15,832 nucleotides of DNA, from the IMG/VR virus record IMGVR_UViG_2675903609_000009; one strand, written 5' to 3'. This DNA is from a virus. Its lineage: Duplodnaviria; Heunggongvirae; Uroviricota; Caudoviricetes. Below the pieces are notes generated by a model. That model was not told the DNA's origin. It ran no database searches and saw only the letters and a program-made list of their open reading frames with translations. Both the position numbers and the translations under genes were made by a program. Of the stretch, positions 8,913 to 9,126 are shown in pieces. Positions within the stretch are counted from its first letter, which is position 1. The number at the start of each line of letters is the position of its first letter.

Positions 8913-9126
8913 AAAAAAAGTCCTGGGGTTAAGTAAGGAACTCCAGGACGCGGCAAACACTCAACCGTTTTTCATAAGGAAATCAGTAATCGCACCGATC
9001 GTTTTCCCGCCTGGTAATGAATATTGGCGAGCACATTAACAGGCGGGAAAGTGGCCCCAGCGTCCTGGCACCACGGGCGAGAATAATCATGATTCAGTTC
9101 GGGTAAAATATGCCGATCCGCTCAGT

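Follow-up and report, generated by a model that had tools for sequence, protein, structure and literature searches.

A conserved folded leader RNA ahead of the packaging operon of capsid-forming PICIs, a candidate two-state switch at the capsid ribosome-binding site

The window, the whole 15,832-nt stretch of viral DNA analysed here (IMG/VR record IMGVR_UViG_2675903609_000009), corresponds to an Escherichia coli capsid-forming PICI (cf-PICI) of the EcCIEDL933 type with every gene on the minus strand, as identified by BLAST against complete E. coli genomes and by the annotation of a near-identical island in strain STEC1587. The island runs from integrase and AlpA genes through small genes, a P4-like primase gene and further small genes, including one for a PerC-family protein, to a packaging block coding in turn for the major capsid protein, an HK97-type prohead protease, the portal, head closure and head-tail connector proteins, HNH, TerS and TerL; the annotation places an Icd-like gene on the island together with the P4-like primase and integrase genes. 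The same gene layout is described for capsid-forming PICIs such as EcCIEDL933 in the corresponding preprint (10.1101/2022.09.08.507074). The HK97-type major capsid gene (7755..8912, minus strand; ATG at 8912..8910), recognised from the STEC1587 annotation, is the first of the packaging operon, which extends from capsid to terminase and matches the annotated cf-PICI layout; in the window it is broken by an in-frame TGA at 8087..8085 (W277*). A non-coding stretch of 263 nt (8913..9175) lies between a terminator-like hairpin and the capsid ATG, and is found at more than 93% identity, unannotated, in about 420 of 5426 complete E. coli genomes. A Pfam scan of ten small island proteins returned only PerC, DUF4222 and AlpA domains, and no Com-like or RNA-binding domain among them.

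A search with the capsid protein yielded 12 genomic loci, 80 loci on viral contigs and 80 in metagenomes, which provided 142 distinct upstream regions for comparison. These comprise an E. coli clade, made up of the window and locus L125; a large clade, hereafter the major clade, from Klebsiella, Citrobacter, Erwinia, Rosenbergiella and others, which includes the induced element vB_KppS-Ant; smaller clades represented by L046/L052/L118 and by Gilliamella; and a short-leader group, which is devoid of the structured part of the leader.

In the direction of transcription, the control region opens with an intrinsic-terminator-like site (9161..9193, minus strand) consisting of the hairpin AGCCGGA/TCCGGCT at 9193..9176 followed by TTTTTGTTATTTTTT. 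The terminator scan recovered this hairpin and its T-run as a genuine consensus match, as had been assumed in the original prediction, with a folding energy of -12.6 kcal/mol (z -3.1). In relatives, an additional gene of 74 aa is flanked by a second copy, and the site appears to close the preceding PerC-like gene block and to insulate the capsid operon. A conserved box, TTTTGTAAATTAT (9153..9165, minus strand), present as a single copy in the window, stands about 90 nt upstream of the predicted start site and is a candidate regulator or architectural site. Its distance to the capsid ATG is 205-257 nt in most of the 142 distinct relatives and 116-121 nt in the short-leader subgroup. Between the box and the -35 element, three direct repeats of TTGTTC with 10-nt spacing (9127..9152, minus strand) are candidate activator sites, their position being taken by TAC(C/T)C repeats in other islands. 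When the upstream ORFs were clustered, no regulator gene among them went with either repeat type (TGTTC or TACCC), and the commonest upstream neighbour, the 74-aa protein, accompanies both types. No convincing match to a LexA box or an IHF site was seen by eye in the promoter or the box. The TTGTTC repeats resemble the type I iterons of P4 (TGTTCACC), and an origin of replication within the leader was therefore considered and rejected: the origin of the window is the TRTCTACC iteron cluster at 10073-10307, from which the TTGTTC repeats differ, and vB_KppS-Ant carries a separate TGTTCACC iteron cluster after its primase gene.

A sigma-70-type promoter is predicted at 9080..9107 (minus strand), with a -35 TTTACC at 9107..9102, a 16-nt spacer and a -10 TATTCT at 9085..9080. 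In the window it is weak, agreeing with the consensus at 8 of 12 positions, and the promoter scan did not pick it up; the arrangement TTT(A/T)C, 16 nt, TATNTT recurs at a fixed, gap-free distance upstream of the first leader hairpin in 51 non-redundant relatives. We infer that transcription starts at about 9074, the first base of that hairpin; since the likely promoter sits between the terminator and the structures, the RNA probably begins there and not at the terminator. An ATG overlaps the -10 region, and its loss in several relatives that retain TATNTT argues against a leader peptide, a candidate that was discarded because this ATG is not conserved among relatives.

From this predicted start, the comparison of sequences indicates a 5' leader RNA, about 160 nt long, that is conserved and folds into three helices, P1 (9074..9051), P2 (9050..9003) and P3 (8949..8920). 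RNA folding, the check proposed with the original prediction, gave a whole leader that folds better than its shuffled versions (z = -4.4; 0 of 200). P1 (9051..9074, minus strand) is a 5'-terminal hairpin, GUGGU-G-CCAG-GACG-CUGG-G-GCCAC, of -15.6 kcal/mol. It is directly abutted by P2 (9003..9050, minus strand), a long helix of 11 bp, one mismatch and 5 bp with a 14-nt loop (-22.6 kcal/mol). P2 includes the perfect 11-bp inverted repeat of the original prediction, TTTCCCGCCTG at 9003..9013 and CAGGCGGGAAA at 9040..9050, which is present exactly as claimed and widens to 17-nt arms (9003-9019 and 9034-9050) that are 94% complementary and 14 nt apart; among 1000 dinucleotide shuffles of the 263-nt leader, 5 contained a perfect repeat of at least 11 bp. 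The second, 7-bp repeat, in which GTCCTGG pairs with CCAGGAC at 8943..8949, is likewise present, with GTCCTGG at 8920..8926 and not at 8921..8927, a slip of one base; it widens to 11-nt arms (8920-8930 and 8939-8949; 91%). Because 540 of the 1000 shuffles contained a perfect repeat of at least 7 bp, this one is meaningless alone and takes its weight only from conservation and position. We identify the two repeats with P2 and P3 of this leader RNA, which is conserved and probably acts in cis. The hairpin P1, its complementarity to the P3 arm facing the Shine-Dalgarno (SD) sequence and the likely promoter between the terminator and the structures had not been part of the original prediction.

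P2 and P3 are joined by a linker (8952..9002, minus strand) with a predicted small hairpin (9000..8981) and a four-codon mini-ORF, MKNG (ATG 8975..8973, stop 8963..8961), which the covariance model described below aligns to the start-codon region of relatives. Neither the small hairpin nor the mini-ORF is supported by covariation or conserved in L125. A leader-peptide attenuator was not found either: the ORF at 8975..8961 is devoid of an SD and not conserved in L125, and the ATG overlapping the -10 is not conserved.

The structural alignment of 87 distinct major-clade leaders, from which RNAalifold recovered P1 and P2, allowed the helices to be assessed separately. Over its 9 pairs P1 is paired in 99.7% of cells, with 3 pairs changed on both sides; P2, also with 9 pairs, is paired in 97.4%, with 8 compensatory pairs and up to four pair types per position; and P3, with 10 pairs, is paired in 93.4% with no double change. 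None of 500 shuffles of the whole structure matched the observed values, and slides by 1-3 columns left 37-49% of cells paired. As the arms of P2 pair at 97.4% and yet are only 64.6% identical between sequences, selection acts on the P2 helix and not on its sequence. P2 also shows a marked strand asymmetry, with 28 G·U against 1 A·C, which points to sense-strand RNA as the selected molecule and not to a DNA palindrome or an antisense RNA. P2 encloses a hypervariable interior, which in many relatives holds two small hairpins with GNRA loops (GCGA, GAGA). By comparison, P1 and the 5' arm of P3 are 96.8% and 96.2% identical in the major clade, against 82.4% for the first 60 coding bases and 69.7% for their third positions.

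A covariance model built from the relatives alone, without E. coli-type sequences, found the window at 9081..8970 (minus strand) with 22.8 bits (E = 3.5e-5). P1 and P2 were correctly aligned, the loop of P1 being the same GACG and its inner stem carrying three double substitutions. Each of 99 loci gave a single match to the model, and every match ended at the capsid ATG. The E. coli-type loci were missed when default filters were applied to a 0.9-Mb search space, the window being found with the filters off. Homology between the leaders of the E. coli and major clades is therefore proposed for P1 and P2 only, P3 being clade-specific. None of the 4227 Rfam models, including C4 and CI RNA, riboswitches, ribozymes and phage leaders, reached its gathering threshold against the window and 18 diverse relatives. 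The permissive mode returned only chance-level matches (MIR2646, 16 bits against 245) and, for L014, sub-threshold, terminator-driven matches to sRNAs in the part upstream of the promoter. The leader displays the generic mark of a conserved structured RNA, that is, compensatory helices beyond those of shuffled and slid controls.

P3 (8920..8949, minus strand; -12.7 to -14.1 kcal/mol) is the hairpin GUCCUGG-A-GUU / AAC-C-CCAGGAC. The coding strand there reads GUCCUGGAGUU-loop-AACCCCAGGAC-UUUUUUU-AUG, and the overlap with the capsid ribosome-binding site (RBS) that had been claimed for the 7-bp repeat is borne out, as the minus-strand 3' arm CCAGGAC (8926..8920) includes the SD sequence AGGA (8924..8921). 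In the window all 7 bases of the SD arm have a predicted unpaired probability of 0.00, so that folding predicts an RBS-sequestering leader hairpin. The opposing anti-SD element, GCGUCCUGG (8943..8951, minus strand), is invariant in 18 of the 18 E. coli-type sequences compared; in the 3' arm of this clade only C-to-U changes that keep G·U pairs occur (8926, 8928), and the mismatched position 8927 varies freely. Hairpins of unrelated sequence are predicted at the same place in other clades: UGGUUUC / GAAACCA in the major clade, occluding an SD-like GGAA; CUGCAUG / CAUGCAG followed by GAG in L052 (SD GGAG); and CAUAUCU / AGAUAUG in Gilliamella, occluding the AUG itself. A hairpin covering the SD or the AUG is thus predicted for the window, for the major clade, for L046/L052/L118 and for Gilliamella, and a hidden start region appears, on these folding models, to be the recurrent feature of the long-leader clades examined.

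Directly after P3, a U7 tract (8913..8919, minus strand) doubles as the spacer between SD and AUG. T7 or T8 follows P3 in all E. coli-clade relatives and in L125, and is absent from other clades. P3 is as strong as the accepted upstream terminator (-12.6 kcal/mol), and was not called by the terminator scan owing to its A·C mismatch and 8-nt loop. Judged by sequence, P3 and U7 look like an intrinsic terminator placed right before the first codon in the E. coli clade; this aspect is clade-specific, since a U tract is missing from the major clade, whose only SD-like sequence, GGAA, is weak.

The anti-SD element has a second possible partner within the leader. CCAGGACGC (9068..9060), which spans the inner 5' arm and the loop of P1 plus one more base, copies the SD arm CCAGGAC plus GC and is the perfect complement of anti-SD GCGUCCUGG (8951..8943). 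Two pairings are hence open to anti-SD: P3, in which it binds the SD arm, and a long-range helix with CCAGGACGC of P1, which has 9 bp and a duplex energy of -17.1 kcal/mol. A 9-nt complement of this kind was matched by 2 of 2000 shuffles of the window and 1 of 2000 of L125. The predicted pairing supplies the exclusive alternative helix, built on the 5' arm of the putative terminator, that is typical of attenuators.

A comparable relationship recurs across clades. In the major clade, the P1 loop can pair with the 5' arm of P3, AGACGUGA with UCACGUCU (58 of 2000 shuffles). In the L067 group the pairing is GACGGG with CCCGUC, a U-to-G change in P1 being matched by A-to-C both in P1 and in the P3 arm; this is the one compensatory event (6 sequences) for the alternative pairing in the major clade. 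Clades of unrelated sequence have equivalent 5' elements, namely CAUGCAGG in L052, UCAUGCGGG in L118 (13 of 3000) and CAUGUAGG in L046, and Gilliamella leaders have CAGAUAUGG upstream of CAUAUCU. In several clades the complement is just 7-8 nt long (p about 0.03-0.05), and two clades need G·U pairs.

The two alternatives are predicted to succeed each other as the transcript grows. In the nascent window RNA of 132-142 nt the long-range helix is part of the minimum free energy (MFE) structure (difference 0.0 kcal/mol); once the SD arm has been transcribed, P1 with P3 becomes the MFE, 9-10 kcal/mol better than the long-range helix. The same switch-over is predicted for L003, L067 and L052. In L125 the long-range helix is optimal at all lengths, and in L052 and L046 the predicted full-length fold closes the 5' element onto the start region, so that the polarity of a switch may differ between clades. 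Length-dependent folds of this kind are, as modelled, what marks a two-state leader whose outcome is decided kinetically. For the window leader at full length, the P1 plus P3 fold, which would be the OFF state, is better by 11.6 kcal/mol, a stability that is odd for a high-demand gene unless an activator exists.

The claim that a structured leader acts at the RNA level is thus supported computationally, through the compensatory changes of P2, the strand-specific G·U pairs and the sequestration of the SD by P3. Among the mechanisms put forward in the original prediction, RBS masking is directly predicted and termination or antitermination is plausible only in the E. coli clade, while nothing supports processing. 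We favour, with moderate confidence and on the basis of modelled structures, a two-state cis-acting switch or attenuator, OFF with P1 and P3 formed and ON with the helix between the top of P1 and anti-SD. In the OFF state, P1 would form first and persist, leaving the anti-SD arm to take the SD arm, so that translation initiation would be blocked; in the E. coli clade, the polymerase may in addition terminate at U7. In the ON state, the anti-SD arm GCGUCCUGG would invade P1 and pair with CCAGGACGC, P3 would not form, the SD would be free and the terminator disabled. P2 would hold the two competing partners close, and the invasion would probably gain its toehold at the conserved GACG loop of P1. 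As the ON helix is optimal only while the SD arm is untranscribed, the outcome would be decided kinetically, by the speed or pausing of RNA polymerase or by a factor opening or holding P1. Candidate triggers are a helper-phage or island factor made after induction, which is the obvious candidate, polymerase pausing and RNA decay.

A simpler account would see in the leader a passive 5' UTR that stabilises the mRNA and tunes its translation with no switching, P1 blocking 5'-end-dependent decay in the manner of the ompA or T7 gene 10 leaders and P2 and P3 fixing the translation level. The location of P1 at the predicted 5' end, the retention of the P2 helix alone around a hypervariable interior and a full-length MFE that is a single state would all suit it. 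It leaves unexplained, however, why the P1 loop and the 5' arm of P3 are conserved above the coding sequence, why P1 and P3 stay complementary to each other across clades and why a high-demand gene should have a fully paired SD beside a terminator-like U7, and we consider it unlikely.

The invariance of P1 (97%) and of TGGTTTCACGTC (96%) exceeds the needs of a helix and could mark a protein-binding site, and the related motifs GACGUG and CACGUC occur in both elements. P1, P3 or both might then bind an RNA-binding translation repressor or activator, for instance an island or helper factor or the unassembled capsid or scaffold protein, with the P1:P3 complementarity being secondary; Mu Com at mom, the MS2 coat protein at the replicase operator and the autoregulation of the P22 scaffold would be analogies. 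Against such a leader operated by protein stand the absence of Com-like or RNA-binding Pfam domains from the ten small island proteins, the lack of any upstream gene family that tracks the leader type and the fact that the P3 of the E. coli clade is quite different while complementarity is still kept. We regard this explanation as doubtful when taken as an alternative; it is compatible with a two-state switch and does not exclude one.

In the E. coli clade, the promoter, P1-P3 and U7 could also delimit a separate sRNA gene whose RNA, terminated after about 160 nt, would either act in trans or be no more than the product of termination, the capsid being expressed only by a polymerase carrying a Q-, N- or put-like processive antiterminator. 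P3 with U7 is a hairpin at least as strong as the upstream terminator, and in its layout the region is like operons under AlpA or Q control, where a promoter, a 5'-UTR terminator and the first gene follow one another (PMC7969949). The leader is, however, kept without the U tract in the major and other clades, and neither the Rfam C4 model nor other phage regulatory RNAs match. Inspected by eye, the first 25 nt hold no -10-like pause element in relatives and only a minimal nAnnnT match, GACGCT, in the window. Against the PDB, the island AlpA (62 aa, PF05930) matched only 8c3t ('AlpA family phage regulatory protein') and, at E<=1, none of the chains of the P. aeruginosa antiterminator AlpA. The idea that the island AlpA acts as a Q-like antiterminator on P3 is not supported, as the name coincides and the sequences do not match, and the protein sizes differ. 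An sRNA gene of this kind appears improbable to us.

Finally, it is hardly credible that the palindromes are DNA-level elements such as operators, a packaging (cos) site or recombination sites: palindromic operator half-sites can indeed co-vary with protein specificity and a repeat-flanked extra gene cassette lies just upstream, but the G·U to A·C ratio of 28 to 1, spacers between the arms that measure 14-60 nt, vary in content and include hairpins capped by GNRA loops, and a replication origin located elsewhere with different iterons all oppose it. A cos site in the leader was also rejected in its own right, since the HNH-terS-terL order puts the expected cos between HNH and terS, the leader being about 4 kb from terS, and the start of the vB_KppS-Ant record, 22 nt before terS, likewise points to a cos elsewhere.

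The proposed two-state leader has several known counterparts. Classical transcription and translation attenuators operate with three competing segments, the anti-antiterminator, the antiterminator and the terminator. As in trp, pyrBI, ermC and riboswitch expression platforms, the cf-PICI leader has a downstream hairpin that masks the SD, with a U tract in the E. coli clade, and an upstream segment, itself in a local hairpin, that can pair with the 5' arm of the downstream one, the choice being predicted to fall during transcription. It differs from them in having no leader peptide, no Rfam match and, as the interior of P2 is hypervariable, no recognisable ligand-binding core; its partners are about 115 nt apart and bridged by P2. 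In phage Mu, a translation-inhibition stem at mom is opened by Com. There, and by prediction here, a late function has its SD and start locked in a hairpin whose opening is governed by an adjacent upstream hairpin; unlike mom, the gene is a capsid gene heading a 9-kb operon, no Com-like zinc finger occurs among the ten small island proteins and the opener may be a cis RNA segment. The rpoS mRNA leader, whose activators are trans-acting sRNAs with Hfq, is similarly a long 5' UTR in which an upstream strand directed against the translation initiation region occludes the RBS and activation proceeds by pairing with that strand; in the cf-PICI leader, by contrast, the copy of the SD arm resides in the same leader, inside P1.

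Phage and satellite RNAs offer further parallels. The P4 CI RNA (seqA/B/C) and the C4 RNA upstream of icd-ant in P1 and P7 belong to the early or immunity region and are processed into trans-acting RNA. They use short complementary segments to mask an RBS and cause premature termination, as the cf-PICI element may do, whereas that element precedes a late capsid operon and scores below the Rfam C4 gathering threshold in the window and its relatives. The promoter-terminator arrangement before a late or lysis operon, as in lambda PR'-6S RNA-tR' with Q and PalpB-tB with AlpA, is resembled by the predicted promoter and the terminator-like P3 of the E. coli clade alone. On the island, no antiterminator of the Q or AlpA type was identified, and most clades have no U tract. 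The adjacent hairpins P1 and P2 at the start of a long operon recall HK022 put, a cis RNA of two hairpins that renders RNA polymerase resistant to termination, a resemblance only. In P. aeruginosa, PalpB is followed by the terminator tB in the 5' UTR before the first gene of the operon (PMC7969949, PMC9371919). A keyword search of two cf-PICI preprints returned no 'promoter', 'terminator' or 'transcript', and 'transcription' once, incidentally.

We would classify the element as a new family of cis-regulatory leader RNAs that is specific to the packaging operons of cf-PICIs and whose type of mechanism, the RBS-masking switch or attenuator, is known. It occurs once per island, in about 8% of complete E. 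coli genomes as well as in many other Enterobacterales, and is a candidate RNA family for curation. A helper-sensing riboregulator, in which the kinetic switch would keep the capsid operon silent until the helper alters transcription kinetics or supplies a factor that opens P1, is a speculative and, in our estimation, unlikely extension; if true, the satellite would time its capsids to helper tail production, through an RNA-level channel of communication between satellite and helper that is not known from any PICI. The cf-PICIs build their own heads and take only tails from their helpers, and the control in time and amount of the expression of their packaging operon is not a subject of the two preprints searched by keyword. 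The analysis defines a control region for the capsid operon, comprising a probable insulating terminator, a weak but conserved predicted promoter with upstream repeats and a leader RNA supported by covariation, and this leader provides a directly testable handle on how a satellite may control its capsid production.

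On the minus strand of the window, the stretch CCUUAUGAAA at positions 8961-8979 contains a short open reading frame of 4 codons (MKNG*). A covariance model built from relatives' leaders, without any E. coli-type sequence, places this stretch on the consensus capsid start region of the relatives, CUCCAUGAAG. The alignment suggests that the E. coli clade gained approximately 60 nt downstream of a vestigial start, including a new P3 (the hairpin whose 3' arm holds the Shine-Dalgarno sequence), the U7 tract that follows it and a new start codon. The leader, the untranslated RNA preceding the major capsid gene, is intact in the window despite a premature stop in the gene itself, an in-frame TGA at 8085-8087 on the minus strand, where relatives carry TGG (W277*). 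Because of this TGA at codon 277, the capsid gene of this genome is either a pseudogene or dependent on read-through.

Upstream of the predicted promoter, three direct repeats with a spacing of 10-11 nt come after the box TTTTGTAAATTAT (9127-9165, minus strand), an arrangement found at the same position in about 130 relatives. The box is nearly universal among the relatives' loci. As for the repeats following it, 88 loci carry the TGTTC type and 38 the TAC(C/T)C type, and neither type correlates with any upstream gene family. In 90 loci from several genera, homologues of a gene coding for a 74-amino acid protein without Pfam match lie immediately upstream of the box. In many E. coli islands this gene is present as an extra one, flanked on both sides by a roughly 90-nt segment with the terminator hairpin at its end (region 10400-10900 of L001, one such locus); in the corresponding region 9176-9300, the window carries a single copy of the segment and lacks the gene. 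In "type B" islands (L014, the vB_KppS-Ant locus, 12030-12131), several sub-threshold Rfam sRNA matches fall on the box, the repeats and a strong hairpin that has a U-run (OmrA-B, for example, reaches 22 bits for a gathering score of 40); they are probably due to the terminator only.

The primase gene (10318..12066, minus strand) is followed immediately downstream by at least 11 copies of an 8-9 nt iteron, T(G/A)TCTACC / GGTAGA(C/T)A, clustered in both orientations at 10073-10307. This cluster is almost certainly the replication origin of the island. These iterons differ from the P4-type TGTTCACC iterons of the related element vB_KppS-Ant (L014, 11720-11950). Three runs of N interrupt the window: 131 bases at 4541-4671, masking the terS-proximal gap where cos is expected, 72 bases at 5635-5706 and 123 bases at 9328-9450, where the PerC-like gene region that shortly precedes the leader is partly masked.

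In short-leader loci, the subgroup without the structured part of the leader (L043, L054 and others), the promoter spacer holds a conserved UUUUUCAUG that lies some 75 nt ahead of the capsid ATG. This motif is complementary to their start region CAUGAAAAA and pairing is predicted; the window holds no complementarity of this kind. If upstream read-through transcripts exist in these loci, the start codon would be masked in them and not in promoter-initiated transcripts, the same logic as in T4 genes e and soc.
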